Shown: piece after piece, positions 7,767 to 41,503 of the stretch | How the letters are laid out: every line of letters starts with the position of its first letter | Numbering within the stretch: position 1 is the stretch's first letter | NCBI RefSeq assembly: GCF_024502345.1 | Contig: NZ_JALDNN010000001.1 | DNA length: 64,000 nt | Strand: one strand, 5' to 3' | Source: Escherichia coli | GTDB lineage: Bacteria > Pseudomonadota > Gammaproteobacteria > Enterobacterales > Enterobacteriaceae | The notes under the pieces: generated by a model | Database searches by the model: none | Seen by the model: only the letters and a program-made list of their open reading frames with translations | What the model was told of the DNA's origin: nothing | Program-made: the position numbers and the translations under genes

Positions 7767-8372
7767 TCAAGGTTGTAACACGATCCGATTCGACTCCAGC
7801 ATGACAGCCGACAGTGTATGAGCCGCAAAAACAGCCATACAGGCTGACAAGTCGCCATTCACAAGAAACTCAACCGGCGCAACGAGTTTCCCTCCATCCG
7901 AAAATCCGCAGGTCAGTGCCGACTTCCTTACCAGCAGTGCATTCGCATCGCTGTATTCCAGGGCCAGAAGCGTTTCATTGTCCCAGTCCCTGTCACTCAC
8001 CGCTGCATTGACCCAGCCCCGCGATTTAAGCTGTTCAATTGCGTACGTCAGCCGATACAAATCCGACTGCGCTGACACCGGTCCGGTGCACGAAGACCAC
8101 AGATATTCCAGACGACTGAATAAGCTGGCGGCAAGGCCTTTGTTACGCCCCAGCGTCAGCAATCCCTCAATATCAGATGCGATTGCACGTGGAAACCGTT
8201 TTTGCTTATACGCCACCGTTAACCAGCGCAGTATAAATGCATGCGTGCTGAGTGGCGACAATGCCTGACCATCCTGCTGAGCGGTACGTAAGGCGACAAG
8301 GGCGCACCAGGCGAAATGCGCAAGTGCTGTGACGGTTTGTTCCGGGGGTAAGGTATCGTGAGCTTTTTTCAT
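7767..8372 (-). CDS. Hypothetical protein (201 aa), last gene of the module-A head operon
   Basis: Long ORF co-oriented with and 76 nt downstream of a YfjJ-like gene. I recognise no motif. Confidence 0.45.
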   Translation of the reverse strand: MKKAHDTLPPEQTVTALAHFAWCALVALRTAQQDGQALSPLSTHAFILRWLTVAYKQKRFPRAIASDIEGLLTLGRNKGLAASLFSRLEYLWSSCTGPVSAQSDLYRLTYAIEQLKSRGWVNAAVSDRDWDNETLLALEYSDANALLVRKSALTCGFSDGGKLVAPVEFLVNGDLSACMAVFAAHTLSAVMLESNRIVLQP

Positions 8373-8448
8373 TCAGGGATTATATCGGCGCTGCAGACAC
8401 CGGGGAAGACCTGGATAACTCCCCCATTAATTAGAGAAGCTATTACTT

Positions 8449-9015
8449 TCACGGACAAATCATCCCCGTTCTGGCCGTTGCTATTGGCTCTGACATGGCC
8501 TTAACATGCACGGTAAGCTGGTTAAAGGGTGTTGCGAAGACTCCCTGAGCGACGCGGTTAATAATGATCTGCGTCATACTCGTTACACCGTCAGTGCAGG
8601 CGGTACCGGTCACCTTTTGCCATGCGTCGGCGATGATGGCGTTAAGCCCCGGAGGCGCACTGTCGGTCAGTTGCAGGTTTCGCCCTGTACCCAGCGTATC
8701 GAGATTGAGCAGCAGCACCATTTTGCACTCCGGTGCGCTGGCCGTCTCCCATATCCAGCGTAACAGCGTCGGGAGTGAACGATGTCGTGCCTGCTGACGC
8801 TGGCGCGAATATTCGCCGGTGCGCTGCCAGACTTCAGAGTGAAAACGCAGAATCAATGACCGGTATTCGCTCATGGCTTCACGATACGGTAGCGCCAGCG
8901 TAAAGCTGAATGCCGCCAGTCGCGGGTAATGGTCAACGGCCTGTTGCAGAAATGCACGCGTGCTGACGGCATCCGCGCTGACAGCATCAGACGCCCGTAT
9001 GTAAGAATGATTCAT
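8449..9015 (-). CDS. YfjJ/YagK-family (inovirus Gp2-like) protein, divergent subtype
   Basis: Carries FLQQAVDHYPRLAAFSFTLALP...LLRWIWETAS...MVLLLNLDTL and is paralogous to 30146-30688. Confidence 0.65.
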   Translation of the reverse strand: MNHSYIRASDAVSADAVSTRAFLQQAVDHYPRLAAFSFTLALPYREAMSEYRSLILRFHSEVWQRTGEYSRQRQQARHRSLPTLLRWIWETASAPECKMVLLLNLDTLGTGRNLQLTDSAPPGLNAIIADAWQKVTGTACTDGVTSMTQIIINRVAQGVFATPFNQLTVHVKAMSEPIATARTGMICP

Positions 9016-9090
9016 AATGCAGACTCTCTTTAGGTTAAATCAGGGAGGACACCGCCTCTACGGCGGTATCTGGTTCATAAAGACGGGGAA

Positions 9091-9507
9091 CTATCTGGTA
9101 CTGCAGCAGTAGTTTCTCTGCCAGTGCGCTTCTTCGATGCTGTAGATACCAGTCAGACACCGGGGACAGTGCTTCACGCCCTGGTAATGGTCGCCGCACC
9201 ACACGCAGTACCAGGAGAGCACCATTACCGTCGCTTCCAGCCCGTTGATGAGACTGCGCAGCTTTCGGTGCCGGGCTTCGGTTTTCACTTCCGGGTCAAG
9301 GTGGGCGCAGGCCATCAGCACATGCCGGGCCACGCTCTGCTGGTCATGTTCAAACCACGGCGGCTCCCCGTATGTCCCCGCATGGAGCACCAGTCGACAG
9401 CCGCAGGACGCGCAGCTCCATATCTGCCCCGGCGCACTCACGGCCTCCCCGGCTGTCGCGAAGTGGCCTTCGCGGTCATTGGCCAGATAACATTTCAGCA
9501 TGCGCAT
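9091..9507 (-). CDS. Cys-rich double zinc-ribbon protein (paralog 2)
   Basis: Carries WSCASCGCRLVLH..PPWFEHD in the N-terminal part and WYCVWCGDHYQG..HCPRCLTG in the C-terminal part. It has the same layout as the upstream gene and overlaps it by 13 nt. Confidence 0.6.
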   Translation of the reverse strand: MRMLKCYLANDREGHFATAGEAVSAPGQIWSCASCGCRLVLHAGTYGEPPWFEHDQQSVARHVLMACAHLDPEVKTEARHRKLRSLINGLEATVMVLSWYCVWCGDHYQGVKHCPRCLTGIYSIEEAHWQRNYCCSTR

Positions 9508-9944
9508 GCCGTCACTTCCTCTATCCGGTTGGTATCAGCACGCACATCACTGTGCTCGCCCGTCCGGCAGGTGAGGCAGTAGCGCTCACCGTGGTAATCA
9601 CTGCCGCAGCCGTGACAGTGCCAGTCTGCGTAGAAAACCAGGGGACGGGCTTCCGGTACATAAGACTGCAGTTGCCGGATATGGCGGGTCTCCCTCACCC
9701 CGGGCTTTACATACGGGCAGTGCTGTCGACCGTTCTCCGAAAGCTTTGCTGCATGATGTTCAAACCACGGACGTTCGGTGTCGTATTCAGGATGGTACTG
9801 CAGGGCACTGGCACACAGATGGCAGCTGTAGCGGTCATACGGCGCGGTCTGCGCGGTTATGGCTCCCGTGAGACGGCCGTTGCCGTCCAGAGCCATAAAC
9901 GATTTTGCATACATAGTGGTACTCTCCTTACCGCCAGACGACAC
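9495..9944 (-). CDS. Cys-rich double zinc-ribbon protein (paralog 1)
   Basis: Carries YSCHLCASALQYH..RPWFEHH and WHCHGCGSDYHG..YCLTCRTG. Confidence 0.6.
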   Translation of the reverse strand: MSSGGKESTTMYAKSFMALDGNGRLTGAITAQTAPYDRYSCHLCASALQYHPEYDTERPWFEHHAAKLSENGRQHCPYVKPGVRETRHIRQLQSYVPEARPLVFYADWHCHGCGSDYHGERYCLTCRTGEHSDVRADTNRIEEVTACAC

Positions 9945-10203
9945 GCAGGCGTCAGCCGTCCCGGTACGGGCAGCGTGGCAGGGTGAATGGCGGTTCAGTT
10001 ATGCGTTAGCGGGTCGGTACGGTTGGTGGTCGGCACCGGAATACAGAAAGGTTACGGTTGTGCAGGTGCGTCGGTGGGTCTGAAACAAACGGGACAGGGT
10101 CTGGCGCCACAGTACTGTCGCCGGCAACGGGGACACGTCCAGCGAACCGGGATGGCCTGTGGCTGAGTGCGGCGTCGTTTTTCCATTCAGATATCCTCCC
10201 TGC

Positions 10204-10443
10204 TCAGACGCCACGGGAATCAGCAATACGCTGCTGCATCCAGGCTTCCACCTCGCTTCTGCGCCAGCGGGAGCTGCGCCCCAGCTTGATGGGTTTCGGA
10301 AACAACCCGTCGCCAATCAGTTTGTAAAACCATTTGTCGGTCATCCCGGTAAACGTGGTGATAAAGGTCATGTCGATAAGCGGGTCCTGAGCTGAAAGCA
10401 GTGTGTCAGGGCTGGCATTAATATTCGTATTCAACGTGGTCAT
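10204..10443 (-). CDS. AlpA-family prophage/island transcriptional regulator
   Basis: Carries LIDMTFITTFTGMTDKWFYKLIGDGLFPKPIKLGRSSRWRRSEVEAWM, the AlpA/Phage_AlpA HTH signature. Confidence 0.85.
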   Translation of the reverse strand: MTTLNTNINASPDTLLSAQDPLIDMTFITTFTGMTDKWFYKLIGDGLFPKPIKLGRSSRWRRSEVEAWMQQRIADSRGV

Positions 10444-10595
10444 GGTATTTTTCTCCCTCTGAGGATATGGCTATCGGGAGACGTCCGGTGGTGGTTGAAT
10501 CATGGGGTTACCGGTTCTCCTCAGAGGATAGGGGAACGTTGTAAAAAATTACCCGGCCCGCACAATCAGGCCTGATGAATCGAGATATGTCTGGC

Positions 10596-11201
10596 TCAGC
10601 CACGGCTGCAACCGAAGTTACGCTCACCGTCACCGGTGATTTTGGTCTCCAGCTTGGCTAAATAGGCCGCCTGCGACAGGGCCTGTTGCAGTTGAGCACC
10701 ATCGCCACGTGTCAACCATGAGACTGGACTCGCCGGGAAACGAGCCAGAACGGCATGCGCCTGTGCATCCACCTTCAGGGCGCTGCACCACGCTTGTTTA
10801 ATCATACCTGCAAGCGAATCCGGGTCTTTGTAATCTCCCGGTCCGCACCACGTATCGCGGTTCAGCAACAGCACCGCGTGGTAATGCTTCTTCCCTTTGA
10901 TTTCACCAAACTCCCGCGCCCAGATAAAACGCAGCGTGGTCGGCCAGACGCGTTTGCCCTCGCGACGTTGACGCGTCTGAAGGGCATCAATCCGGGCTTT
11001 CAGGGAATCGGTGAAGCGGGAGATAACAGCAGCATCGGTGGCCGCTGGCGTATCCGGCAGACGGAGGTCAACACGCAGGGCCAGTAAGCGGGTGTAAGCG
11101 TTAAGAGCGCAACTGAAGGTATCAGCGATGCGTTGCTGCCAGTAAGGGTCGTATGTGTAACTCATTAAAATGGACTCCGGTGGGTTATCGTTCATAACCA
11201 T
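10596..11201 (-). CDS. YfjJ/YagK-family (inovirus Gp2-like) protein
   Basis: Carries LRVDLRLPD...ISRFTDSLKARI...LRFIWAREFG..KKHYHAVLLLNRDTW. The true start may be the internal MSYTYDPYW at 11165. Confidence 0.8.
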   Translation of the reverse strand: MVMNDNPPESILMSYTYDPYWQQRIADTFSCALNAYTRLLALRVDLRLPDTPAATDAAVISRFTDSLKARIDALQTRQRREGKRVWPTTLRFIWAREFGEIKGKKHYHAVLLLNRDTWCGPGDYKDPDSLAGMIKQAWCSALKVDAQAHAVLARFPASPVSWLTRGDGAQLQQALSQAAYLAKLETKITGDGERNFGCSRG

Positions 11202-11336
11202 TACCGGTGCTGTTAAAAAAAACTTATTGCCTTCAGCGAGTCCGCCAGTCGATCCCTCAGAGACGGCTGGCTTCAGTAAAATATCGTGGCTGGCAGAATG
11301 ATTGCGTAAAGGGTAATCGCCTCTCAGAAATCGGTT

Positions 11337-11857
11337 CTAATGCCGGGTGACCCGAAGGCTGCGAAAAAACAGTCTTCCCGTTAGACGATGGCGGGTACGC
11401 TTGACATAAGCGGCGTCAACGAGTTCATCGGGTGGCAAATCACGGGTGATATTACAAATCGTCGCCAGTGCTGTATCGGAGAGTTTAAAACTCCGTGACA
11501 AGGCGTAGTAATCCCCGGTTTTTTGGTTACTGATGTTATCGAATAACGCTCTGAAGAAATCCGTCTGTGAAGGTCTGCGGGCGTTGATAATTGCCTCTGT
11601 CGCTTCATCCCTGAATGTTACCTCCACCTCTTCCATCCCCAGTGAGCGAATGATCCCGGCAATGTCAGGCCAGTAGCGAAGATCGAAACTGTTAAGTCGC
11701 TGCAATTCTGGCTTACAGAAGCAGCTGAAGATTGCGATGCCCTTGTATTGACCTGGACCCAAAATAGGTTGTGGTTACCCTGAAAAGCAAATATTACCCC
11801 AGAGGGATGTATATACCCGGGGCAAGAGCCCCTGTACCAGTCCCTCATTGCTGTCAT
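11337..11857 (-). pseudogene. Hypothetical gene, probably frameshifted near 11760
   Basis: ORF 11618-11857 (MTAMRDWYRGSCPGYIHPSGVIFAFQGNHNLF..) runs into ORF 11337-11762 (..GPGQYKGIAIFSCFCKPELQRL...) in another frame with no gap. It could instead be a shorter intact gene starting at MEEVEVTF (11636). Confidence 0.35.
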
Positions 11858-13311
11858 GATATTATTACCCCGTTCAATAAGCCCGATAAATAATCGTTAT
11901 CGGGACTACTGCTAAAACGCCCTGTAACGCATCAGGAGCGCCATATTCATACTAACCACAGATTTCCACTATCGTGTTATTCAATGCGCTTATGCAGGCT
12001 CACAGGAAGCTATGGCGGTATAAGACACTACAGCGCTCAATTACTTATTAAATAGCTTGCGGTGATTACCAGGATAATCACCCTATTCCACGTCACCTCA
12101 ATCGGGTTATTCTGTTTACGATACAATCATGACTATTATCACCAACACGGATAATGCCCCGTTTACAGTCGTTACCAATGGCCTTGTTTACACATATCAA
12201 AAAACTTTCAGGGATAACGGGTCACCGTAGTATCTGTAACTGACAGGTATTGTAAGCGTCAATATCAGGCAGACAGAGCAATACCGACAGGCTTACTACA
12301 GGTTAGTTCACTGACTGAGCATTTAACGCTCATCACTAATACGCAGACCAGTAATAAACCATTGATACTCACCTGCTGATTTTCAGGCATGACCATTCAC
12401 CCAAAACGTTACTGTTAACCAGTAACCACCCTGTCGTTATGATTATTAGATTACTGATGTTAATCATCTTCACTTTTATCCTGACGAGGACTAGTCAATG
12501 GTAATATCGACTCAATTCAATTCTGTTTTCTTAATGATAGATTTTTAATGAGTGCTAAACATTCAGGTTGTGACTACATTGAATGGTGTATTTCTTACCT
12601 GATGGCAATGATTGCTCAATGGATACCATCCAATAGTACTATCCCCTTAGTGAATACCTTCAGATAATAATACCTCCCAGGCATAACCCACTTACTGATA
12701 ACACATCATCGATTACTGTTACAAATGATAAGACCCCTTCTTTAATATATTAATACCAATCCAACACGCCAGGCATAACAATAGCTATGAAGATAACCAC
12801 GCCAGACAGCACTTACCTACAACAAACGCCTGCATCAGTTACTCTGGAATTATCTTTTTTCAATAACATGAAAATAGACACCACGTCATATCAAATAACC
12901 TCAATCAAATTAACCCCGTATCATCACTGCCCGCAGAAGCCCTCAATCCTGATTATGAGCAACAAAATGGAAATACCTCATGGCAGCCCGACCTGATACC
13001 AGAAATGCCCCCTGAAGCGAACCAGGCACCATGATGGGGATGAAAACGAAAGCATGCAGGAGAACAAGATAACCTATTGAGACGATACTCATCCAGTAAA
13101 CAGAGAAGCATCTGAGAGATAAACAAAGAAAATGACAACTTTAAAACCATGGTAAAACCTTGTCAAAACCAGTATAAATCAACAATAAAACCTCACGATG
13201 ACTACCAGATGTGTTTTTAAGTGACGATAAAACCATCATCGTGATACTGTGTAGCTACAACAATCACCACCATAACCACTACTATGTAGTTTACGATTAC
13301 AGGTATCCACA

Positions 13312-14280
13312 ATGGTTGTACATTACGACAATGGCAGACAACATCTTATAAAAACCCGTGACCTGAGAGTCTGTGCTTTTTATGCCGGGTGGCTGGGTGT
13401 TAATAAAATAATTAACACCCGTGACATTCCTCACCAGGATGCAGAAAGTTGTCGACAGGCACTCAACAAACTGATTAATCAGTTCATACCGAATGCAGAA
13501 CAGCGGGCAAGACTTTTTTCTGATATGGAAACAGCCCGTGATGAAAACATCCTTCCGCTGGAAAGTTTTGACTGGCTAGAACAGGATGAACGGGCAACAT
13601 TCTGGTTATGGGCGTATATTTGCAAGGCCGGAGACTACGAACTTGGTATTGACAAACCAGCAAATGCAGAGTTCGGAAAGAACTGGTATCAGCGAATGAA
13701 TCTGAGTGTATCTCCGACAAGCCACCAGGAAAGAATTAATATTATCATCTCTTTTTTCGACAACATTATTATTCCGACCCCACCGGTAAATCATCTCAAG
13801 CGCCAGGTCATGGACAGGCTGAAAGACCAGTGGAAAAATATTTACAGCAAACCAGCTCCGCTGAAATGGTTACCTAATGAAGAAGACGCGGTACTGTGGG
13901 CATGGAACAGCCTCAAATCGCTTCAGGAAGAAAGAAATGCGCCCACTATCGGGCTCTCATTAAATATTTCAACGCCAGGAATGAGTACCTGGTTTACCCC
14001 CCTGAGTCATTCTGAACGCAATTTAGCCCTGCGCACGGCGATCGACTTATGGGACGATGCACCGGATACAAAGCGTTTATTCCTTCTGAACCTGAATAAA
14101 GCCTGGAACCAGCAAAAATTACGTCAGTCCCGTACCGATAAAAAAGCACTCAATACGTACCTGAAGAACGAAACAAAAACTCGACTGGACTTTATGGCAG
14201 AACGTAGCGGAGTTCGCATCAGTGATATGCTGGAAATGCTGATTAATGACCATTACCGAAAAACCTGTGGTGGTGAGTGA
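13312..14280 (+). CDS. YfjH-like island protein with a C-terminal ribbon-helix-helix-like tail (322 aa)
   Basis: Paralogous in layout to 40694-41503 (ATFWLWAYI / AAFWFWLVI; LxWAW; SxxER). The C-terminus KALNTYLKNETKTRLDFMAERSGVRISDMLEMLI looks like an Arc/CopG RHH. Confidence 0.6.
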   Translation: MVVHYDNGRQHLIKTRDLRVCAFYAGWLGVNKIINTRDIPHQDAESCRQALNKLINQFIPNAEQRARLFSDMETARDENILPLESFDWLEQDERATFWLWAYICKAGDYELGIDKPANAEFGKNWYQRMNLSVSPTSHQERINIIISFFDNIIIPTPPVNHLKRQVMDRLKDQWKNIYSKPAPLKWLPNEEDAVLWAWNSLKSLQEERNAPTIGLSLNISTPGMSTWFTPLSHSERNLALRTAIDLWDDAPDTKRLFLLNLNKAWNQQKLRQSRTDKKALNTYLKNETKTRLDFMAERSGVRISDMLEMLINDHYRKTCGGE

Positions 14281-14629
14281 GGGCTTTGCGCTAAAAACAA
14301 GGTGAGCGGAGGCAGTAATACAGACCAGAAATGACATTCAAAATAATTTCAGACCTATATTACCGGTGTGAGAACGGCAGCAGAAGTGCTGCCGTTTTGT
14401 TATTTCACTCACGGAGGTTAATGTGTCCAGTAAGAACAAACGGGGTCCCGATACCCTGTTACCGTCGTTATTCCTTCTCCCGGGTCAACTGTCCCACAAA
14501 ATACCCGTGCGTATGCTTCTCGCGCTAAGTCACAGCTATGCTTTCTGTTCCGGTACCCAGGTCTCTCTGATACACGGTCCGCCAGCTCATGAAGGCGGCT
14601 ATTTATTGCCAGTAATAAGGGAGAAAGAA

Positions 14630-14926
14630 ATGCATTGTCCGAATTGCGGTTCGCAAAACATACGACTGCGCCATGTGGGTAAAAAGACGGGTGGGGTCAT
14701 TGGCGCAACAGCCGGAGGCATTGCCGGGCTTGAAGGAGCCTCCACCGGTGCGCTGATAGGTTCAGTCATTCCGGTTGTCGGTACGATAGCCGGAGGCCTC
14801 ATTGGTTTTCTGTCCGGCGCCTGTGCTGGTGCGGTGGCAGGCTCTCTGGCCGGAGAACAACTGGACGGTACCGTCTTTGATGAATACGGCTGCACGCAGT
14901 GCGAGCATATCTTCAGTGCACCGTAA
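14630..14926 (+). CDS. Small zinc-ribbon plus glycine-zipper protein (98 aa)
   Basis: ATG at 14630 follows GGGAGAAAG. Reads MHCPNCGS...; the GxxxG-rich segment is GGVIGATAGGIAGLEGASTGALIGSVIPVVGTIAGGLIGFLSGACAGAVAGSLAG, and the C-terminal motif is GCTQCEH. Confidence 0.6.
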   Translation: MHCPNCGSQNIRLRHVGKKTGGVIGATAGGIAGLEGASTGALIGSVIPVVGTIAGGLIGFLSGACAGAVAGSLAGEQLDGTVFDEYGCTQCEHIFSAP

Positions 14927-15187
14927 CGTTAATAAGGGTCAGCCCATCCTGCACAAAGCCTGAGCCGCTGACCGTACTCGCTACGGCACGACTGATGACA
15001 GGGCGTGTCAGCATGCTGTCGTCATTTCAGCTACCTGGCACTAACCCTTTGTTAATTCTCCTGTTTACTGAAAGATGAATTTTACTTTTTCTTTTCCGCC
15101 ATTACGGGGGATGGACATAACGTGTCCCTCCCCGCCCGCATAATAACCGCATGAAATATCAACCTATTTATCGCACACGGAGCGTCC

Positions 15188-15916
15188 ATGCAACGACCCG
15201 ATGAAGAGGCCCGCTACGACCGGCTGGCCGTCAGATTGTCGGTCATTATCAGCCGGTTAATGGCCGGAGAAACGCTGACCCTTCAGACACTGTCCGGTGA
15301 GTTTGGTGTATCGATACGCACCCTGCGTCGTGACTTACATCAACGGCTGGTCCACCTCGACATTATCGGGGAGAACGGCACGTATCGGCTCAGTGAGAGC
15401 GCCACGCGTGATCACTCTCCGGGGGCCGTTTCCTTTGCCCGCAGTACCGGTATCGCACGCATTATCCCGTCGCAGAACCGGCAACTGATGCACCTGCTGA
15501 TGAATGAAACGGGCACCTCACCCTGCTTTATCTGGCACGACTTACCGCCAGCATGGACACAGGCTGACAGTTTTCATCGTCTGGCCGAAGCCATTTGTCA
15601 TCACCGGGTGGTCAGTCTGCTGGTCGGCGGTGTCCGTCACGATGAGCAGGAGCCTTACCGCCTGATTTACCGGCATCAGCACTGGTATCTGGTCGTCTGT
15701 TGCCGGGGGAGCCTTCGGGTGTTCCGGCTGGAAGACATTATCTCGGCCTCACTCTCAGAGCAAACCTTCCGTCGCCGGAGCGAAATCAGTTCGCTCATTA
15801 CTGAAGAGGGATTTATCAGCGCACTGCCCCACTTTCGCTTTATCAGTGATGTCATTCACACCTTCAGGGAACAACACCCTGAACATCCATCCAGACCCAA
15901 AGGAGTCAAATCGTGA
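15188..15916 (+). CDS. WYL-domain transcriptional regulator (HTH plus WYL)
   Basis: Has the N-terminal HTH LTLQTLSGEFGVSIRTLRRDL and the central EPYRLIYRHQHWYLVVC motif. Its stop overlaps the next gene's start. Confidence 0.75.
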   Translation: MQRPDEEARYDRLAVRLSVIISRLMAGETLTLQTLSGEFGVSIRTLRRDLHQRLVHLDIIGENGTYRLSESATRDHSPGAVSFARSTGIARIIPSQNRQLMHLLMNETGTSPCFIWHDLPPAWTQADSFHRLAEAICHHRVVSLLVGGVRHDEQEPYRLIYRHQHWYLVVCCRGSLRVFRLEDIISASLSEQTFRRRSEISSLITEEGFISALPHFRFISDVIHTFREQHPEHPSRPKGVKS

Positions 15917-16179
15917 AACCTGTCGAAGGCCCTCTGCTGCTCTTCACCCTGATGTTGTCTGCCGTAACCCTGAGCGGCTGTGGCGACAAAAATGAACGCG
16001 AGTTTATCCGGGGATGCAAATCAGGCGGCGGTACTACCGCCGTCTGCGGATGTATCCGGGATGACCTCAAAACGAAATATACGCACGGGGAGCTGGAGAA
16101 AATGAACCAGCAATACGGTTATGTCCCCCCGCGCTTCATGGACAACATGCTGAGCGCTGCTCAGCAGTGCAGAAAATAA
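15913..16179 (+). CDS. Small lipoprotein
   Basis: Signal peptide with lipobox LLLFTLMLSAVTLSGC. The GTG start overlaps the regulator's stop (GTGA). Confidence 0.65.
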   Translation: MKPVEGPLLLFTLMLSAVTLSGCGDKNEREFIRGCKSGGGTTAVCGCIRDDLKTKYTHGELEKMNQQYGYVPPRFMDNMLSAAQQCRK

Positions 16180-16191
16180 GGAAATCTGAAC

Positions 16192-16503
16192 ATGGCGCTT
16201 GTCATTAAATATTTCGCGATTGCCTTCGCCATCGCGCTTGTGGTCGTGCTGTTTAACGTGTTCGGGAGTACCGGCGAGATACGCAGTTTTGGTCAGGGAA
16301 TGGAATATCTGTTCTGGATGACGCTTGGGCCCGGAGCCGGTATGACGGTCGGTGCTGCTCTTCGACAATGGCTGATGCCGGATGCGGTATACACCCGCGA
16401 AGGAATGACCGGATTACTCAAGGCCCGTCTGTTCTGGCTTGTGGGCCCACAGTATATCGGCTGGCTGGCCGGACTTATCGTCGTGGGTAAACAACTCATG
16501 TAA
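16192..16503 (+). CDS. Small inner-membrane protein (3 predicted TM segments)
   Basis: Hydrophobic segments include IKYFAIAFAIALVVVLFNVF and LFWLVGPQYIGWLAGLIVVG. It lies 12 nt after the previous gene. Confidence 0.55.
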   Translation: MALVIKYFAIAFAIALVVVLFNVFGSTGEIRSFGQGMEYLFWMTLGPGAGMTVGAALRQWLMPDAVYTREGMTGLLKARLFWLVGPQYIGWLAGLIVVGKQLM

Positions 16504-16549
16504 CACGGCTGCCCCCCAACAACATTTTTGACTGAGAAGGAAAAATACC

Positions 16550-17020
16550 ATGCGATTCATGCACGCCATCCTGTCAGCAGGATTACTGACCTTTGCCATC
16601 ACGGCACAGGCGGTCCCCAATATGTGGAGCAGTGGCTTCGGTATGGGCGTCACCGAGTACATCATCACCAGCCCGGAAAACGTGATGATGAACCTGAACT
16701 GCACCGGCAACCCTGACGACCAGAATATCCTGCAGCATCACGTCATGCTCACCCTGCCTGACGGCAGCGGTGCCGATTCACAGGATGAGAAAACCGCCAT
16801 CACCGTCGTCACGGATGACCAGACGTTCCCCCTGCCGTCCTCTCTGGGCTGGCGTAACGGCGACAACGCCTGGCTGTCGTTCATTGATGCCATCAGAAAA
16901 GCAACGTCGTTTGAGATTTACGTCAACGACAAACAGGTGGGGCACTTTACCCCTTCGGCTGGAAACGTTCACAAGGTTCTGGCTGATATGCCCGAATGCA
17001 CGACACTGACCGCCGGGTAA
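16550..17020 (+). CDS. Secreted/periplasmic protein (YfjT-like position)
   Basis: Has the cleavable signal peptide MRFMHAILSAGLLTFAITAQA|VP and an RBS AAGGAAAAA upstream. Confidence 0.6.
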   Translation: MRFMHAILSAGLLTFAITAQAVPNMWSSGFGMGVTEYIITSPENVMMNLNCTGNPDDQNILQHHVMLTLPDGSGADSQDEKTAITVVTDDQTFPLPSSLGWRNGDNAWLSFIDAIRKATSFEIYVNDKQVGHFTPSAGNVHKVLADMPECTTLTAG

Positions 17021-17068
17021 CCCGGCGCATCCCCGGTTTACAGCAAAATCAATCAAGGACAATACGAT

Positions 17069-17581: not shown

Positions 17582-17663
17582 CGCAGCTCTCCTCTTATTA
17601 TCCGGCCGGGGCATTCCTGTGTGCCCCAGATTCATCCGGATCCCCCCTCTGAGATTTGACCCA

Positions 17664-17885: not shown

Positions 17886-17940
17886 TGCCCTGCTCACTGA
17901 GCGGGGCATTTTGTTTTATGCCATTCATCAGGAACTGAAT

Positions 17941-18174: not shown

Positions 18175-18212
18175 CACACCACAGCTTAACCCAATAGCGA
18201 CCACACAAAAAA

Positions 18213-31773: not shown

Positions 31774-32030
31774 AAGATATGCTCCGTTATGCGCAGCCCA
31801 CAACGCGTCCTGCCCGAGAATGAGCTGACGTGTTATGGTTTGCGGATGGGGTTGATGGAATACGTGAAGAACCGAAACAGAACGGGAAGATCAGGTCACC
31901 GACAAGGGGCGAACACCGGATACAGGTTCAGGATGAATGATCTCCGTTGACTTCGGTTCACATCATTAATCAAGGCGGTAAGGTTTTACCGACGGAGTGT
32001 TTCCAGGAGCGGAGGCTCAGGCCTTAAGCT

Positions 32031-32597
32031 TCAGAAGTGAGGCTTACGAGGACGCCCTGCAGCAGGCCGTTCAGGAACTTCATTGCAACCGTAGGCACAC
32101 AGCCCGTCTTTTTGTTCTTCTTTCGCCAGATAATGCAGGACACCGCGAATATTATCGATGCTCCCGGGATCGTTATGACGCACGGGGATGTTGATGTTGT
32201 ATGTATAATGCGGCTGATATGTACAACGGTGCACCGAACCGCTGTTATGCGTAATAGACCGCCAGCATTCCGTAATCCGCTCCGCAAAGGGATATATTTT
32301 TTTAACTCTCTGACGATCGATCCAGAAAACCGCATGCGCATGAAAACCATGATCAGCCGTCCATTCAATCACCCAGAAGAAGCCAACGATATTTTCAAAT
32401 TGTTCCACCTGCTCCAGCAGCATACGCAACTGCAATTCAAGCCAGCGGTGATCAGGTTGTAAGAAATCAGGCGTATCTTTCCTGTAGAAGAAATCCATCC
32501 GTAAGGCCCGCAGGCAGGAATAGCGTGCCATCATTTGATTGATGTGATGGTCAAGTAAGGCGGTAAAAAACCAGTTTGGTGTGTAAGATTTAGGCAT
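32031..32597 (-). CDS. YfjJ/YagK-family protein
   Basis: Carries LRALRMDFFYRKD...FFWVIEWTADHGFHAHAVFWIDRQ. Confidence 0.7.
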   Translation of the reverse strand: MPKSYTPNWFFTALLDHHINQMMARYSCLRALRMDFFYRKDTPDFLQPDHRWLELQLRMLLEQVEQFENIVGFFWVIEWTADHGFHAHAVFWIDRQRVKKIYPFAERITECWRSITHNSGSVHRCTYQPHYTYNINIPVRHNDPGSIDNIRGVLHYLAKEEQKDGLCAYGCNEVPERPAAGRPRKPHF

Positions 32598-33618
32598 GTT
32601 GATGACTCCTGAAAGTTAATGACGTTTTAAGCTCTGTGAGCGAATTAATGCTTTCGCTCATAATCAGATCTAAAACGGTAATAACTTACAGACGGTATTT
32701 ATCAGGCATGCTGTAGCAGAATGGATACGACGGGTTATTAACGACGCGTAGCGTTGTGCTGAAAGGAATAGGTTATCTGATGGCATTGACTAAAGAAATG
32801 AGATAAACGAGGAGCGAATAAAATACAGACTCAATAAAACATCACGAAATACTGTAAAATACGCGCTAAAACCCCACTAACTGGCGCATTACGGCCAATC
32901 ACATCATAAACTACAAACTTGCTCTCAGTGGTTCTAAAAAAAAACGTGTACAAAGCCAACGCAATAAACTTATACGCCCTCATCCAATCTGTTCTTAAGG
33001 ACATGAACGTTAACCGCACACATTACCAGAGTAAAAAATACCACTGGCATGATTTTTACCCTGCATCTTAAACAATACAACCCGAAACAAACATAATCAG
33101 GAATTCACTCTGTTGATTCTGTTGTTTATCCAGCTCTGTTAAACATGACGGAATCATGGATACTGTATCAAAGAGTAAACATTCAGTTAATCAGTGATGA
33201 CAAAAGAATTGATGTTCACCAGAATAGTTAAAACACTTCAGATAAACAATTATCGTTAAGTAAATACAGTTCATGATAAATAAGATTAAGATCAATTGCT
33301 GTTTCAGTGAAGACTGATAACAGATGGATATTAGCAATAGCGTAGTAGAGAATAGCTTATCTGAATATCATATGAGTTACAGTAATTATGATTGGGGGAT
33401 GGAGTGAATACGATAACAAGAGTAATACTAATGGAATATGTAAAGATTGAGAGTGAGTGAAGACAGGAAATAAATAACAATAGAGATTATATCAAAAAGG
33501 GAGTGAGTATAATAATAGTAATAAACCTAAATTAAAAACATCCATGTTTTATGTAAATACAAATCTGTTTCATAATTATGTACAGAAGTTCGTTATAACG
33601 AATATGTAAATAATTCAG

Positions 33619-34381
33619 TGTAAGTGCTGCCATATTAAAGGTGATCGCTCAGGTGTCAGCGCCAGCGATAATAAGACGGTCACCATTTGGATTGTCCGCT
33701 CCACCCAACATGTTGTTTCCTTAAGGTTCTCACACCAGAAAGGACATCAACATGCTGAGCAGAGAGGACTTTTACATGATAAAGCAAATGCGCCAGCAGG
33801 GCGCGTACATTGTCGATATTGCGACTCAGATTGGTTGCTCTGAACGGACGGTCAGACGCTACCTCAAATACCCTGAACCGCCAGCCAGAAAGACCCGCCA
33901 CAAAATGGTTAAGCTGAAACCGTTTATGGATTACATCGACATGCGCCTGGCAGAGAATGTCTGGAATAGTGAGGTTATCTTCGCGGAGATTAAGGCAATG
34001 GGTTATACGGGCGGACGTTCCATGCTGCGTTACTACATCCAGCCCAAACGTAAAATGCGTCCGTCAAAAAGAACAGTTCGCTTCGAAACTCAGCCTGGAT
34101 ACCAGCTCCAGCACGACTGGGGCGAAGTTGAGGTGGAGGTTGCCGGGCAACGGTGCAAAGTTAACTTTGCGGTTAATACGCTGGGGTTCTCCCGCCGCTT
34201 CCATGTCTTCGCAGCACCAAAACAGGATGCTGAGCATACCTACGAATCACTGGTTCGTGCCTTCCGCTACTTCGGTGGTTGTGTGAAAACGGTGCTGGTT
34301 GATAACCAGAAGGCTGCGGTGCTGAAGAATAACAACGGGAAAGTCGTGTTCAACTCCGGATTCCTGTTGCTGGCCGACCAC
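33619..34381 (+). mobile_element. istA: IS100 (IS21-family) left end with truncated istA (33752-34381)
   Basis: MLSREDFYMIKQMRQQGAYIVDIATQIGCSERTVRRYLKYPEPPARK...NSGFLLLADH matches my recollection of IS100 ORF A, then diverges. The left boundary is placed at TGTAAGTGCTGCC, where G+C rises; it is approximate. Confidence 0.75.
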
Positions 34382-34808: not shown

Positions 34809-35249
34809 TCACTCATAATCAGAACAAGATGATGATGTGCCCTGAGATATAAGAAAATCATCAAGAGAACCTCCGGCTTTTATTGCTTCTGCAATAACAG
34901 AAGGCCGACGACCTTGTCCACTCCAGTACATTATTTGACCGTTATACTCATACCTGTACTTATTAGACTCTCCTGAATCGTTTTTTCTGCCCGTCTGTAA
35001 TTTTTTGCCAAATTCACGATACACATCTTCCGCCGTTACACCTGCGTCATCCATGTACTTTTTGATAATTGCCAAAGAATCCTTCAACTCATTACGCTGC
35101 TCAATGGCCTTTTCAAGGTTATCCTTAACTTGATTGAAGTCTTCATCAGACATTTCCATGATCAACTTCCGGACAAGGTTGGAATTAAGAAGTGATGTAC
35201 GAACAGTAGCGAGATCTTCATTCTCAACAGAAAACTTCTTCTTGCTCAT
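34809..35249 (-). CDS. H-NS-family nucleoid-associated protein (horizontally acquired paralog)
   Basis: 146 aa with an N-terminal coiled-coil-like region and the C-terminal DNA-binding motif YRYEYNGQIMYWSGQGRRPSVIAEAIKAGGSLDDFLI (H-NS 'TWTGQGRTP' loop variant). Confidence 0.8.
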   Translation of the reverse strand: MSKKKFSVENEDLATVRTSLLNSNLVRKLIMEMSDEDFNQVKDNLEKAIEQRNELKDSLAIIKKYMDDAGVTAEDVYREFGKKLQTGRKNDSGESNKYRYEYNGQIMYWSGQGRRPSVIAEAIKAGGSLDDFLISQGTSSSCSDYE

Positions 35250-37010: not shown

Positions 37011-37889
37011 TTATTTCAGCGTGCCGAACTGTTTGTCTTTCAGTGCATATAGTCGGTCGAACTCAGCATAGGGCTCTCCCGTTTCAGCCGCGTGCCGGGT
37101 TTTAGCATCCAGAAGGTCGGGTAAAGGGATCCTATGATTCAGTGAGTGGTAAAGATCATAACCACTGACACAGATAACCCGCTTCCCTTTACCAAAAGCC
37201 GTCAGGCCTTCAGGCGTAAACCCCATCCAACTGATAAAAACACCGCGTGTCCAGGTTGCCTTGGTACTGAGTTTTCCTTCAAATACATGGAGGTCGGCAG
37301 CCGACGTTCTTTTCTGATGCCACTTTGCCTCCATCAGGTAAAATTCATCATTCAGCCGGAAACTTCCGTCAATCTGTTCTCCTGTATTTCGGAAAGACGA
37401 ACGAGGAGCAAGCTTAAAGATACTGAACAGTTCAGCAAGCCAGGCTTCAAACCGAAAACCACGTGGATGTGGCGGCAGAGATTTCATCTCGTTCATTTCA
37501 GCGATAAGTGAATGCCAGTCAACACCATGCCATGCCTGGACAGGCTTAACGCCTTTGGCTTCATCGGTGTCAGCGTTTTCTAAGCGGGAAATCAGTGCAA
37601 GATAGTCATTACGGCTTTGTTCAGCCTGTTCAGGCATGGATTCCGTTTTATACTGCCAGAGCGCACCAAGAACCCGCAGAGCGGTCTCACGATCAACCTG
37701 TTTCAGCAAGCATCTAACTCGTTTGGCTTTTGACGCCCCCTCTTTCTGATAACGTTCATCATCAATATCAATGTTCAATTCTTCATCGAAAAAAGCAGAC
37801 AAGGTGCGGTTAGAGAAATCCAGTATCCAGCCAGGATCGCTCTCGAACACGATATTAAACAGCCTCAAATCCTGCATTTTCAGTTTCAC
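37011..37889 (-). CDS. Mrr-like PD-(D/E)xK restriction endonuclease-domain protein with an unknown N-terminal domain (292 aa)
   Basis: The C-terminal half FEAWLAELFSIFKLAP...GEQIDGSFRLNDEFYLMEAKWHQK...GVFISWMGFT fits the Mrr catalytic fold pattern (D...E-x-K). The N-terminal ~130 aa are unassigned. Confidence 0.65.
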   Translation of the reverse strand: MKLKMQDLRLFNIVFESDPGWILDFSNRTLSAFFDEELNIDIDDERYQKEGASKAKRVRCLLKQVDRETALRVLGALWQYKTESMPEQAEQSRNDYLALISRLENADTDEAKGVKPVQAWHGVDWHSLIAEMNEMKSLPPHPRGFRFEAWLAELFSIFKLAPRSSFRNTGEQIDGSFRLNDEFYLMEAKWHQKRTSAADLHVFEGKLSTKATWTRGVFISWMGFTPEGLTAFGKGKRVICVSGYDLYHSLNHRIPLPDLLDAKTRHAAETGEPYAEFDRLYALKDKQFGTLK

Positions 37890-38216: not shown

Positions 38217-38948
38217 TCACCTGCCATCCAGTAGACGCCCCGGCCCACGACTGCAACCATAATTACGTTGACCTGAACCATCATGCAACTTCGTTTCATT
38301 TTTCACGAGATAACTGGCTCTGTTCCGGGCTTTCTGCATCGCTTCCACATCACCACGCTTGATCCAGAGAACAGCGGCTTCACCAGACTTTTTGTCTGAA
38401 ACCTTCCTGGTTTCAGAACATCCACCAGGCACAGGCGTATCATCGGAAGAAGGGCGAGCATCAGATGATGTCGGTTTACGGAAAGGCGTCCGCCTGGAAA
38501 AATGAACCAGTCCATTACCCTGCCAGGGCTCAAGATGCAGAGCACTACACCATGCCAGCTTGATCAGTGTCGCCAGCGAAGAAGGAACGGTGAAATCCCC
38601 TGGCGAGCACCAGGTATCTTTGTTGAGCAGTAATATCACGTGATAATGTTTCCTGCCTTTTTCCTTGCCAAACTCCCGACACCAGAAATAACGCAGAGTG
38701 GTTGCACGCACACGCTTGTTGGCACGTCGTTTATGTCGCTGGTAAGCCTGAATTTTTGCTTTCAGGGATGCAAAAAAACGAGAAATCACCGCTGAATCTA
38801 AATCGGTATCCATGATGGTGGCAGGCATATACTCAGGGAAACGTAAATCCACCCGGATTAACGAGACGGCACGGTGTTGCGCCAGGGCACTGTTGAGAAT
38901 ACTTTCAAAACGGGATAACCAGTAAGCATTGTGTATTGGTTGATTCAT
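38217..38948 (-). CDS. YfjJ/YagK-family protein
   Basis: LIRVDLRFPE...ISRFFASLKAKI...LRYFWCREFGKEKGRKHYHVILLLNKDTW is the closest paralog of 10596-11201. Confidence 0.8.
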   Translation of the reverse strand: MNQPIHNAYWLSRFESILNSALAQHRAVSLIRVDLRFPEYMPATIMDTDLDSAVISRFFASLKAKIQAYQRHKRRANKRVRATTLRYFWCREFGKEKGRKHYHVILLLNKDTWCSPGDFTVPSSLATLIKLAWCSALHLEPWQGNGLVHFSRRTPFRKPTSSDARPSSDDTPVPGGCSETRKVSDKKSGEAAVLWIKRGDVEAMQKARNRASYLVKNETKLHDGSGQRNYGCSRGPGRLLDGR

Positions 38949-39820
38949 GATGAGAGATCTCCGTTGATTTGGATTGACTTCACATCATTAATCACCGTGG
39001 TAAAACTTTACGGCATCCCGCCAATAAGCAACGCCAATGGCTCCTGATTGAACGGAACAAACCATCCCGGAACGAAAAGAGAATCCAGCTGACACATAGG
39101 GTAAAAACACCTCTGCAAAACACGCAACAACAGCATGAATGGATTTAAAAACGACATGGACAACGAGAAAAGTCAGAAGGGAAAAGGATCCACAGAACAT
39201 TCGAACAAAACACCAGAAACGCAACCAGAACGCTTCCTGGTAATGCAAATCAACAACAACCCCAAAACCTACAGCTTAATCACACAACTCAATCACGGAT
39301 GCGAATGACACGTTTAAAACCTGTTTACAGATAACCCCGCCACAAGAACAAAAATCATCAATATCAGAATCGATTTTCTTATCCTGAAAATGTTACGTTT
39401 CACTACGCACCATAAAAACGATTAACCATCGATAACGTAAACTTCATCTGAATCAAAACACCAAAACCGTTCATCACACTTTCGCAATGCAAGAAGAAAC
39501 CTCATGACAAAAAGAATGACCTTACACGGAAAAGAAAACGTCAGGAATCGTTAATGCCTCAATCTGATTGTTATCAAAACATCCAGAAAGTCGTTTAACA
39601 GAATCGTCGTAAGCACATCGAAAAAAACGTCAGATTACTTCAGGAAAGTTCGGGTTGATTTAGCGTAAAGATACTTTTCTCATGCTAACGTCGAAACTCG
39701 AAATCTCAGAAAAGGTTAAACGCAACATCAGTAAAATCGAATAGCAGATTGATTGCTTAAACAGAAAGGTTTTACAGCAGCTTTAAACTGATTTTAGCTA
39801 ACGTAAAGATTTACTAAACT

Positions 39821-40012
39821 GGATGTGTATCAGATCAAACAATGTGTACAGCAATGCTTAATGAAAACACGTGTATGTCTGGTAAAACACTTAGTAGAAA
39901 ATACGTGTATAACACTTACTGAAATGCTTAGTAAAAATACTTAGTAAAATATGTGTAGAATTATCTATTTAAAAAGATATGTATATAACACTTAATAAAA
40001 ACATGTGTATAT
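39821..40012. repeat. Iteron-like degenerate direct-repeat array (CTTAnTrAAAA..GTGTA units)
   Basis: Six exact GTGTA cores start at 39825, 39844, 39871, 39905, 39953 and 40005. They are interleaved with six CTTA(A/G/C)T(G/A)AAA units at 39857, 39890, 39915, 39927, 39940 and 39990. Confidence 0.6.
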
Positions 40013-40693
40013 AGTATCATACCGACATTCTCAACATCTTCAGACATCCATGCATACTGGGTGTTGATTTTTCACTTTTACAGCCAGCATAGAGTTTTCT
40101 GCTCTGAAAACAGAGCAGATTTACTCTGGAATTATTTTTCTGTCCCCGTATTTCAGGCCCCAGAAAAGACAATCCGAAGCAAACCGTTTGTCAGCTTCCA
40201 TATCATCTTTTACCCCCGGAAAGTGATCGCGTTTTACAACCAGAATGACAGCCATACTGATTATGTCATCTCCCGGCTCCCTTCACATATAACATGCATG
40301 TCTGTCATTGCTTACTGCTCCACATGACAGGAATTCACATACAGGATGCGCATTCAGTGTTTTTATCGCCACTATAACAGACAGATTACTGTCGCTTTTA
40401 CTTTTCAGATTGTTAATCTGACCACAAGAACAGTCGAACAGTACAACGACACACCCAAGGAGGATATGAGCCGTAGTTGATAGCATGTTTTAATTTATTA
40501 TGAATAGATCAAGAATAGATCGTGAATAGTTAGAGAATAGTTCTTCAGCATCTCACAGAGTGATCAAGCCTTGAAGTGATTACTTTTTGAACACAAGTCC
40601 GGATGCAATGTTTTTTTGTTAACTTCCTTGCATATTCGATTTCCATGTGATAGTGAAAATCACCAGAAGAGAATGCGATTGAGGCGTAATCAG

Positions 40694-41503
40694 ATGAAAC
40701 AATATGAAGATGGTTATAACGTGAATGGATATAGCTGGGAAAATGAAACAATTGAGTATTTGTTGAATGATAAACAACTGACAGATAATCACATACCTGA
40801 ATGGGTTAAAAAAAATGAAATTGCAGCATTCTGGTTCTGGTTAGTTATAATTAACACAGATCCCAAACTCCTTGGGGTTCGTAATGAATTAGGGTTCAAT
40901 ACAGCCATGATGGGGCTGATTCCTGCGGGGAGTATACCCATAACAACAATTCCTTCAGATCATGAAATGAGACTGGATGTTATAAGCAAATGGATTAATG
41001 CATTAATCCTTGACAATCAATCAGATTGGTTCATCTCAACAATGCATCAAAACTGGCTGCAGATCGAAAAGAGAAACGAAGCCAAATGGCTTAAAAAGAA
41101 TACAGAACAACTCGAATGGGCATGGAAATATATCAATGCACGCATCCCGCACACGTATCTTTCCTGGTTTTATCCTGTAAGTGATAACGAAAGATACATT
41201 GCTATCGTAGTTTTACTAAAAATTTTATTCCCCGCAGATACACCATACTTACAGCAGCCAAAAGTACTTCACTATGGGGTTGCCGCAAAAGAAAAATTTT
41301 TCGACAAGATGCACAATGCATTCCGAAAACAGTTTACCGACGGAAAAAAAGATAAGCGGGTACAAATCAACGTTAAAATATCATCAGATGCAAAACGTAC
41401 TCTGGACAGACTGACCAGAGAACTGAAAACAACACAACAGGCTGTCCTGGAACATCTGATTCAGAACCACAGGCTGGTGATTCAGAACCACAGACTGGAT
41501 TAA
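40694..41503 (+). CDS. YfjH-like island protein with a C-terminal RHH-like tail
   Basis: The start is taken at MKQYEDGYN (40694, after GAGG). It is a paralog of 13312-14280, with C-terminus QINVKISSDAKRTLDRLTRELKTTQQAVLEHLI. Confidence 0.6.
   Translation: MKQYEDGYNVNGYSWENETIEYLLNDKQLTDNHIPEWVKKNEIAAFWFWLVIINTDPKLLGVRNELGFNTAMMGLIPAGSIPITTIPSDHEMRLDVISKWINALILDNQSDWFISTMHQNWLQIEKRNEAKWLKKNTEQLEWAWKYINARIPHTYLSWFYPVSDNERYIAIVVLLKILFPADTPYLQQPKVLHYGVAAKEKFFDKMHNAFRKQFTDGKKDKRVQINVKISSDAKRTLDRLTRELKTTQQAVLEHLIQNHRLVIQNHRLD

Follow-up and report, generated by a model that had tools for sequence, protein, structure and literature searches.

The window analysed here is a 64,000-nucleotide stretch of the Escherichia coli contig NZ_JALDNN010000001.1 (RefSeq assembly GCF_024502345.1), a mosaic of E. 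coli type with an overall GC content of 0.488, and it holds three related gene modules designated A, B and C (Table 1). The modules follow a common plan, in which a minus-strand operon with YfjJ-family genes is set apart by an AT-rich gap from a divergent gene on the opposite side. An earlier note on this DNA had described the plan and had called the modules the heads of three tandem CP4-like islands; both the plan and the coordinates given for the open reading frames (ORFs) are borne out. Modules A and B additionally encode AlpA, recognised in each by the Pfam profile Phage_AlpA as had been anticipated. The gaps, too, are AT-rich and lack long ORFs as described; they measure 1021-1667 bp at a GC content of 0.34-0.40, and the longest ORFs inside them span 62-88 amino acids (aa). 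In module B, the place of the divergent gene and of the tail is occupied by a 5' piece of an IS21-family istA gene, annotated as incomplete in the related locus L002. This insertion sequence (IS) had been named IS100; an IS21-family piece is indeed there, and the specific name is unconfirmed.

The relationship among the modules was established by all-against-all BLASTN for DNA and by BLASTP and hhalign for proteins. At the DNA level, similarity is confined to 176 nt of alpA shared by A and B (77%), 165 nt of yfjJ shared by A and C (67%) and a leader of 68 nt shared by B (31927-31989) and C (38944-39011), and the modules are thus not tandem in the sense of repeats. Protein homology reaches beyond the YfjJ genes and includes AlpA (A and B, 68% identity), the UCP030791-type proteins (A and B, 26%) and the divergent proteins (A and C, 20% over 245 aa, BLASTP E 9.5e-9), with the YfjJ proteins of A and C themselves 42% identical. 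Protein homology accompanied by near-zero DNA identity indicates that the modules are distant lineages of one element type and were not made in place. The shared plan and orientation of A, B and C within 34 kb could also be ascribed to a single head that was duplicated locally in tandem and whose copies then diverged and had their cargo replaced. Such an origin is extremely improbable, and effectively refuted already: inter-module DNA identity is essentially nil with protein identities of 20-68%, each module is found alone elsewhere at 96-100% identity, the A-to-B junction is unique to the source genome, and IS fragments lie at the junctions.

The region is very probably a composite of three separately acquired, decayed islands of the class that unites a tyrosine integrase, AlpA, YfjJ (Gp2-like), RadC and CbtA, islands which in Enterobacteriaceae usually occupy phe-tRNA genes. 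Sequences to the left and right of the junction at 18524-18533 match different genomes, with the homology of island A ending inside its DUF932 gene and that of genomes with the defence cluster starting at this point, and the A-to-B junction is spanned by 0 of the 5,426 complete E. coli genomes that served as the survey set for gene presence, slot continuity and the junction search. In the strain APEC E16002, an IS66 element lies just beyond the helicase gene, near the point that corresponds to this junction. Fragments of IS21, IS256 and IS1 mark the module edges. The array is bracketed on the left by a group II intron reverse transcriptase/maturase gene (2000-3523), an IS30 transposase gene (4674-5825) and an IS256 fragment (6444-6896), and in L012, L023 and L031 group II introns are again found immediately past module B. 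On the right, the genes match those that in L010 carry Pfam domains of a DcuS-type sensor, a response regulator, DcuB and fumarase, and the array is capped by a gene whose translation we take to be that of IS1 InsB. Almost every sampled context has modules B and C side by side, arranged as B, IS21 fragment, H-NS gene, IS256 fragment, Mrr-like gene and C; this B+C pair is common in E. coli, and the position of the H-NS gene is kept in most genomes that carry it.

Each island survives as a head, in which two arms extend from a divergent, AT-rich control region. The first arm carries one to three YfjJ-family genes, AlpA, zinc-ribbon and UCP030791 genes and then a DUF2913 or ECs1377-family gene; the second encodes a protein of about 300 aa with a weak ribbon-helix-helix (RHH) match, followed by GTPase, DUF932, antirestriction, RadC and CbeA/CbtA genes. 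The tail formed by this second arm is complete for C, truncated for A and absent for B. In intact relatives, the first arm gives way after its final backbone gene to a cargo bay that runs towards the integrase and differs in content among strains. The three pieces would have been joined by IS-mediated or illegitimate recombination, and because the joining removed integrases and attachment (att) sites, the array is probably immobile. The locus is a well-resolved example of enterobacterial island accretion and decay.

Comparison with other species covered 19 Enterobacterales loci carrying related heads. In these loci, the gap is flanked by the tail and the divergent gene on one side and, on the other, by YfjJ, AlpA, the zinc-ribbon gene(s), UCP030791 and DUF2913 or ECs1377 where present, and then cargo; in L042 and L047 among them, and also in L007, the bay ends in a P4-type integrase. 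Within the E. coli survey set, the ECs1377-family gene that closes the operon of module B is present in 2,264 of 5,426 genomes (42%), and homology breaks approximately 80 bp past it (at about 29354), with the MAD1/SNF2 cargo of the window contiguous with this scaffold in 22 of the 2,264 (1%). Similarly, the C-type yfjJ is present in 1,912 of 5,426 genomes, homology breaks approximately 35 bp past its stop codon (at about 38180), and the Mrr-like gene follows in 421 of them (22%); TIR, DUF3987, TonB receptor and acyltransferase genes fill the C slot in other genomes. Further defence occupants of the slots comprise DndB/DndD, type I restriction-modification (R-M), SNF2 with Abi and GmrSD, HsdR with KwaA, TIR, PDC-M09B and a Zorya-like set of MotA, OmpA and DUF8245 genes with YjiT, and the slots also harbour IbrAB/PerC and type VI secretion system (T6SS) clusters. 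Terminator and promoter scans at both slot boundaries returned nothing above shuffled expectation. Slot content therefore varies across genomes rather than being invariant, and a hotspot composed of a conserved scaffold beside a variable defence or accessory bay is supported. The scaffold with swappable cargo that the earlier note had envisaged holds in this respect, given the small shares of genomes with the same cargo and the sharp breaks, with slot boundaries that had been misplaced. Homologous recombination between the head and the integrase, the conserved flanks of the bay, would exchange the cargo. The ends of the ECs1377-family gene and of the C-type yfjJ, found in 35-42% of complete E. 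coli genomes, provide landmarks for mining cargo, and searches anchored on these gene ends, and not on integrases or core genes, could yield uncharacterised genes amid defence systems.

The largest cargo of the window, a 10.5 kb defence cluster between A and B (18676-29227), was missing from the earlier account. It encodes a type III restriction endonuclease (Res) and its modification partner (Mod), an AIPR protein (AbiU/MzaE-like), AbiD, a DrmD-like SNF2 helicase and a MAD1 helix-turn-helix (HTH) protein, with PADLOC matches to REase_III (8.9e-191), MTase_III (7.4e-285), AbiU (1.4e-37), AbiD (3.4e-71) and DrmD (1.7e-208). MAD1 is a small excisionase-family HTH ORF (29021-29227) scoring 81.9 bits against an NCBIfam cutoff of 80 bits, and the best model for the SNF2 protein is DrmD_b, with a score below its cutoff. 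By its gene content the cluster looks like a MADS/DISARM-like composite (MADS, methylation-associated defence system) in which two Abi genes are embedded. Bay C holds the Mrr-like nuclease that had been predicted there (Mrr_cat), and the bay of A, which contains an RND efflux block in relatives, holds only IS and intron debris in the window.

The zinc-ribbon pair and 201-aa protein previously noted in A, and the 219-aa protein and extra YfjJ noted in B, are all present; the pair combines DUF7828 and Zn_ribbon_11, the 201-aa protein matches DUF2913, and the 219-aa protein belongs to the ECs1377 family (2.9e-97). In the zinc-ribbon proteins, a CxxC motif, WFEH and two more CxxC motifs are conserved. 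When the zinc-ribbon, DUF2913 and ECs1377 families were compared as profiles with PDB sequences, nothing significant emerged, and a remote homology between DUF2913 and ECs1377 was rejected at an hhalign probability of 0.25%. As judged from comparative sequence data, DUF2913, the zinc-ribbon pair and ECs1377 behave as element backbone and not as variable cargo, a status that follows from their fixed order with YfjJ and AlpA in many genera, the absence of any PADLOC match and the occurrence of DUF2913 and ECs1377 relatives on plasmids. The zinc-ribbon genes follow AlpA in 14 of the 19 Enterobacterales loci, and DUF2913 follows UCP030791 in L034, L035, L037 and L038.

It is improbable that these genes are instead exchangeable cargo occupying equivalent slots and, as such, candidates for a defence or anti-defence function, as the earlier note had it. 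DUF2913 and ECs1377 are non-homologous, yet each closes a head operon; the presence of the genes differs among loci (zinc-ribbon in 14 of 19, UCP030791 in 7, DUF2913 in 4 and ECs1377 in 3), some genomes have a ProQ-like gene separating UCP030791 from the ECs1377-family gene, and the DUF2913, zinc-ribbon and ECs1377 families are without known function. However, their order with YfjJ and AlpA is fixed across many genera at 31-96% identity, and DUF2913 and ECs1377 stand in tandem in L037, hence they are not alternatives for one slot. Moreover, the ECs1377-family gene is present in 42% of complete E. coli genomes, homology runs about 80 bp beyond it before breaking, and PADLOC finds no match for DUF2913, the zinc-ribbon pair or the ECs1377-family protein. 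Since the genes travel with the scaffold across genera, they inherit little prior of a defence role from their position.

Plasmids provide a second view of these families. Relatives of DUF2913 (about 40-44% identity) occur on 3,269 plasmids and relatives of the ECs1377-family protein (about 64% identity) on 535, mostly conjugative in both cases, and this frequency makes a role in establishment or anti-defence after transfer conceivable. The plasmid copies lie in backbone regions, one between trbA and excA and another near parAB and a resolvase gene, which argues against their being cargo. A post-transfer role of this kind is possible for DUF2913 and ECs1377, with no support from position. On the one IncF plasmid examined (L065/L066 set), the DUF2913 gene has a small partner gene upstream that overlaps it; this partner was considered as a UCP030791 relative and rejected as unrelated. 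On the one IncK2/Z plasmid examined, the ECs1377-family gene between trbA and excA is accompanied by a thermonuclease gene. The zinc-ribbon pair by itself is 100% identical on 16 plasmids.

Table 1. Features of the three modules, their cargo and their flanks (positions in the window; a dot denotes a feature without strand).
Feature	Position	Strand	Basis or remark
DUF2913 protein, 201 aa, last gene of head A operon	7767-8372	-	Pfam 4.9e-20
Degenerate YfjJ paralog, UCP030791 type (A)	8449-9015	-	BLASTP, PF27752
Zinc-ribbon pair, DUF7828 + Zn_ribbon_11	9091-9507, 9495-9944	-	Pfam 4.3e-33 / 2e-18, 1.1e-29 / 8.8e-11
AlpA-family HTH protein (A)	10204-10443	-	Pfam Phage_AlpA 1.3e-8
YfjJ of A, predicted HUH fold, HYH + YLAK	10596-11201	-	Pfam YagK_YfjJ_C 2.2e-45
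141-aa ORF	11337-11762	-	Probable rearranged gene fragment
AT-rich divergent intergenic region A	11763-13311	.	1549 bp, GC 0.40
Divergent 322-aa protein (A)	13312-14280	+	Weak RHH match
Truncated tail of island A	14423-18533	+	100% identical to L001 until inside DUF932
Junction of island A tail and module B cargo	18524-18533	.	10-bp overlap of two homologies
Bay B cargo, 10.5 kb defence cluster	18676-29227	-	PADLOC, NCBIfam
ECs1377-family protein, 219 aa, last scaffold gene of B	29434-30093	-	NCBIfam NF052300 2.9e-97
Degenerate YfjJ paralog, UCP030791 type (B)	30146-30688	-	BLASTP 6e-10 to 8449-9015
AlpA-family HTH protein (B)	30914-31264	-	Pfam Phage_AlpA 3.1e-10
Divergent YfjJ paralog, 196 aa	31213-31803	-	hhalign, BLASTP to K-12 YfjJ
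YfjJ-family protein, 188 aa, HAH + YLAK	32031-32597	-	Sub-threshold Pfam, motifs
AT-rich region B, cut by IS fragment	32598-33618	.	1021 bp, GC 0.34
IS21-family istA 5' fragment	33645-34381	+	Pfam rve + HTH; 98-99% to annotated copies
H-NS-family protein between B and C	34809-35249	-	Pfam Histone_HNS 1.1e-11
Mrr-like nuclease, 292 aa, cargo of bay C	37011-37889	-	Pfam Mrr_cat 1.3e-5
YfjJ of C, HYH + YLVK	38217-38948	-	Pfam YagK_YfjJ_C 4.1e-36
AT-rich region C with iteron-like cluster (39847-40010)	38949-40615	.	1667 bp, GC 0.38
Divergent 295-aa protein (C)	40616-41503	+	BLASTP 9.5e-9 to 13312-14280
Complete tail of island C	41500-49597	.	GTPase Pfam; annotation of 96% identical region
Gene taken to be IS1 insB, right cap beside dcuS	49877-50380	-	Translation

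All six YfjJ-type proteins are homologous, at unequal confidence. The six YfjJ/YagK paralogs previously counted therefore stand as homologs, three of which alone keep both the HUH and YxxK motifs. The proteins of A and C are the most securely assigned (Table 1), sharing 34% (BLASTP 9e-34) and 30% (2e-26) identity with YfjJ of E. coli K-12, respectively. The 188-aa protein of B, annotated as inovirus-type Gp2, has sub-threshold Pfam matches to REP_ORF2-G2P (4e-5) and YagK_YfjJ_C (7.5e-4); a REP_ORF2-G2P match above cutoff is found for the protein of C alone, that of A also falling below. The UCP030791-type proteins of A and B are assigned to PF27752 in the precomputed annotation of near-identical genes, where an identical copy of the A gene also has a weak PF11726 match, and are linked to the family through BLASTP matches of the A protein to YfjJ of A (7e-7) and of the B protein to the A protein. 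The 196-aa protein of B is connected by hhalign against the YfjJ profile (80% probability, E 1.3e-5) and by BLASTP to K-12 YfjJ (7.8e-5), and all 58 homologs of its family are from E. coli.

YfjJ is predicted from structural modelling to have the central beta-sheet fold of the HUH endonucleases. The HUH motif reads HYH in the proteins of A and C and HAH in the 188-aa protein of B, the YxxK motif reads YLAK in A and B and YLVK in C, and the HUH motif, Y180 and K183 are invariant among 17 family members. The 196-aa paralog has a single His and no Tyr, and alignment shows the UCP030791-type proteins to be degenerate, that of A with neither the HUH motif nor the Tyr and that of B with an absent or partial HUH motif and no Tyr. 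The presence of six copies in 31 kb, previously thought unusual, is not so, as a head of this type normally has several paralogs: the widespread B+C pair accounts for four of the six, and heads in Vibrio have two or three consecutive copies.

Elsewhere, E. coli 99-3165 (L068, 5774-7770) has a hybrid head in which a C-type YfjJ is directly followed by a B-type paralog of 191 aa and AlpA; together with the 68-nt leader common to B and C, this suggests that heads recombine with one another. E. coli-like YfjJ contigs were also encountered in metagenome-assembled genomes labelled Bacillota, Bacillus and Corynebacterium (L051, L052 and L044), whose YfjJ genes are either 82-90% identical to the C type or share 66% identity with the A type, and these host labels most likely reflect binning contamination and not real host range. 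The AlpA protein of B is 76-78 aa long in public annotations.

The divergent genes of A and C are homologous to each other and are not YfjH-like as had been proposed, since K-12 YfjH gives no BLASTP match and an hhalign probability of 2.1%. The 322-aa protein of A has a weak C-terminal RHH match (Pfam RepB-RCR_reg, 8.8e-4), the profile of the divergent family matches CopG (2cpg) at E 0.04, and the protein of C has a weak match to PF10723 in its 284-aa form in L003. At the 3' end of the C gene, a 21-bp tandem duplication (41457-41498; perfect register, 95% match) repeats the C-terminal peptide IQNHRL.

The gaps themselves show no homology to one another past the 68-nt leader by BLASTN, and an Rfam scan of positions 7000-43000 at E <= 1 returned two sub-threshold chance matches, neither within a gap. 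Where gap C is richest in AT (GC 0.27-0.30), an iteron-like cluster is found at 39847-40010; all four window matches of RCTTANTRNAAA fall within it (0.55 expected), accompanied by further near-copies and repeated AYRTGTAT motifs. To judge from its sequence, this cluster could serve as an origin or as an array of protein-binding sites. Nucleoid-silencing genes are island-borne in two cases, the H-NS paralog that separates B from C and, in the enteroaggregative E. coli (EAEC) 042 island, the hha gene of its gap region (L071, 12159-12371), and their presence fits silencing of AT-rich control regions.

The tail of island A contains genes for a membrane protein, a WYL-HTH regulator, YfjT, DUF4234 and DUF905 and the 5' part of DUF932. 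Module A and this tail are 100% identical in E. coli EH09-18-41 and in the Klebsiella plasmid pRWS291.s3 (IncFIB/IncHI1B), both of which retain the adjoining RND efflux block that has been lost from the window. Module A, a full tail and the RND efflux or metal-related block form one conserved unit in pRWS291.s3 (L067), L001 and L013-L015, and the unit (6115-18533 of the window) is 100% identical between Klebsiella IncFIB/IncHI1B plasmids and the chromosomes of E. coli and other hosts. Next to yfjJ of A, a segment of approximately 340 bp (11383-11728) is inverted with respect to both flanks in three other genera (L033, 8947-9291; L034, 8967-9305; L036, 9020-9351), where its counterpart is the C-terminal part of a longer opposite-strand ORF (270 aa in L033 and L034, 166 aa in L036) and 500-600 bp of extra DNA lie beside it. 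Given this inversion, the 141-aa ORF of the window is probably either a fragment left by rearrangement or part of an invertible segment; no convincing pair of flanking inverted repeats was found around it.

The tail of island C begins with a minus-strand gene for a 315-aa protein without an assigned family (41500-42447) and continues on the plus strand with GTPase, DUF905, DUF932, antirestriction, RadC, DUF987, CbeA/CbtA, DUF5983, DUF957 and DUF4942 genes. In five related islands, a gene for a 242-aa DUF3944 protein with no equivalent in the window sits between the WYL regulator and the divergent gene (L040, 7605-8333; L042, 7022-7750; L046, 7553-8281; L055, 7023-7751; L057, 6813-7541), and it probably explains five strong matches of tail-side proteins to the PADLOC model JukA (E 1.4e-62).

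How such islands would move can be outlined from these components. AlpA-driven excision is reported for CP4-57 (as cited in a passage of PMC12595487), and by analogy AlpA would control excision here. The motif-bearing YfjJ would nick DNA in or near the AT-rich gap so that the island, once excised, could be replicated or mobilised; the degenerate paralogs would serve as non-catalytic partners, and the RHH-like protein would be a partner or regulator. A tentative proposal, held at low confidence, is that, together with the gap, the YfjJ HUH protein, its degenerate paralogs and the RHH-like protein make up a module for rolling-circle-type replication or mobilisation, with a non-canonical relaxase or Rep protein and its origin. 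If this is true, such a module would move the widespread 'integrase-only' defence islands of Enterobacteriaceae. The conserved HUH-fold protein with intact motifs beside an AT-rich region sharpens the question of how islands are transferred, and a nickase paired with its origin would explain their spread.

The heads could alternatively be control and replication modules of phage satellites (phage-inducible chromosomal island- or P4-like) or of transduced islands that respond to a helper phage, in which case the island would travel in capsids and neither by conjugation nor by rolling-circle replication of its own. This is unlikely. Defence cargo is said to be typical of satellites, and some variants of the heads carry a DUF3987 (YfjI-type) gene after yfjJ. 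Related Pseudomonas islands with an integrase, alpA and a Gp2-like gene are transduced by a jumbo phage (PMC12595487). However, neither the window nor the sampled relatives contain capsid, packaging or primase genes, and YfjJ has a single match in a sample of 50,697 phage records. The tail, moreover, includes antirestriction and DUF932 genes, and two of the backbone genes are shared with conjugative plasmids, features which better fit transfer of single-stranded DNA.

Several points weigh against the composite-island interpretation and the mobility proposed for it. The window contains no tRNA gene, no match by tblastn to IntA or a P4-type integrase, and no phe-tRNA 3' end within three mismatches at the module borders that could be an att remnant; with neither integrase nor att site in the window, membership in the island class rests on comparison with relatives. 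Non-defence cargo occurs, including T6SS, RND efflux, IbrAB, TonB receptor and acyltransferase genes, and the bay is on this account a general accessory bay. The excess of PADLOC matches on the slot side (92 proteins matching 396 models, mainly of type I R-M, against 65 tail-side proteins matching 71) tallies model families rather than loci, and type I R-M models are highly redundant; by locus, type I R-M is on the slot side in 5-7, and DndD, a type I S subunit, PDC-M09B or T6SS genes occur in individual loci. Cargo sites also exceed one bay: the gap of L037 (Hafnia) holds a minus-strand gene (7964-9940) for a 658-aa AAA_15/AAA_21 ATPase of the OLD/Gabija/PARIS type, and in L035 (Tenebrionibacter) the corresponding place has an ORF of roughly 656 aa without annotation. 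As to the mechanism, no nick site or origin was found beyond the iteron-like cluster of gap C, the repeat motif of which has no copies in gaps A or B, catalytic residues are missing from three of the six paralogs, and the putative role of YfjJ in nicking, replication or mobilisation is that of a candidate.

The closest known systems place the locus within a described class. In CP4-57 of E. coli K-12, genes are ordered intA-yfjH-alpA-yfjI-yfjJ-abpBA-rnlAB-yfjP...ypjF. AlpA and YfjJ are common to both, with a weak match of K-12 AlpA to that of B (3e-4); tail proteins are shared at 36% (YfjP/GTPase), 75% (YfjQ/DUF932), 43% (YfjR/WYL) and 46% (YfjT) identity, and the annotation of CP4-57 has the defence genes abpAB and rnlAB directly after yfjJ. 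The heads differ from it in gene order (alpA-yfjI-yfjJ in CP4-57 and yfjJ-alpA in the window), in spacing (43 bp between yfjH and alpA there, a gap of 1.0-1.7 kb here) and in their divergent genes, to which K-12 YfjH is unrelated. The window also lacks an integrase, an att site and a DUF3987 gene (YfjI gives no tblastn match), whereas DUF3987 follows yfjJ in L027 and L028, and the zinc-ribbon, UCP030791, DUF2913 and ECs1377 genes are absent from the CP4-57 annotation. The label 'CP4-like head' is thus apt for the tail and the AlpA/YfjJ pair and not for the layout of the head.

Outside this island, the HUH Rep replicons (pMV158 CopG-RepB, parvovirus NS1, adeno-associated virus Rep and SIRV1 ORF119) are linked to the window at the level of sequence families by the REP_ORF2-G2P match only, and differ in that the genes of the window are divergent rather than in one operon. 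The pheU island of EAEC 042 shares the order of the head, with a Gp2-family gene, the zinc-ribbon pair, ECs1377 and then cargo, and also the tail elements GTPase and Ag43; its cargo, however, is a T6SS cluster, and hha lies in its gap region.

Islands with a core of integrase, alpA, inovirus Gp2-like and RadC genes together with defence cargo have already been described (PMC12595487). The Pseudomonas islands I23, I44 and I55 of that study resemble the present heads in their AlpA, Gp2-like, RadC and HTH core and their variable, defence-rich cargo, and have no genes for autonomous transfer; transduction by a jumbo phage was shown for one Pseudomonas island only. They sit at the tmRNA gene with alpA at the end opposite the integrase and have YqaJ in the core, whereas enterobacterial heads additionally possess zinc-ribbon, UCP030791, DUF2913 and ECs1377 genes as well as a tail of the CbtA type. 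Measured against this core, the window has alpA, the Gp2-like protein, RadC and defence cargo, and lacks the integrase and direct repeats. For E. coli, passages of PMC10121019 describe defence systems on mobile elements at hotspots with conserved flanks and strain-variable defence content, many at tRNA genes and including integrase-only islands whose mode of movement is there called unclear. The passages searched make no mention of alpA, pheU or pheV, and the slot boundaries about 80 bp past ECs1377 and 35 bp past yfjJ are not described in them. Both the island class and the pattern of defence bays are already published, and the locus is another, decayed, example of them.

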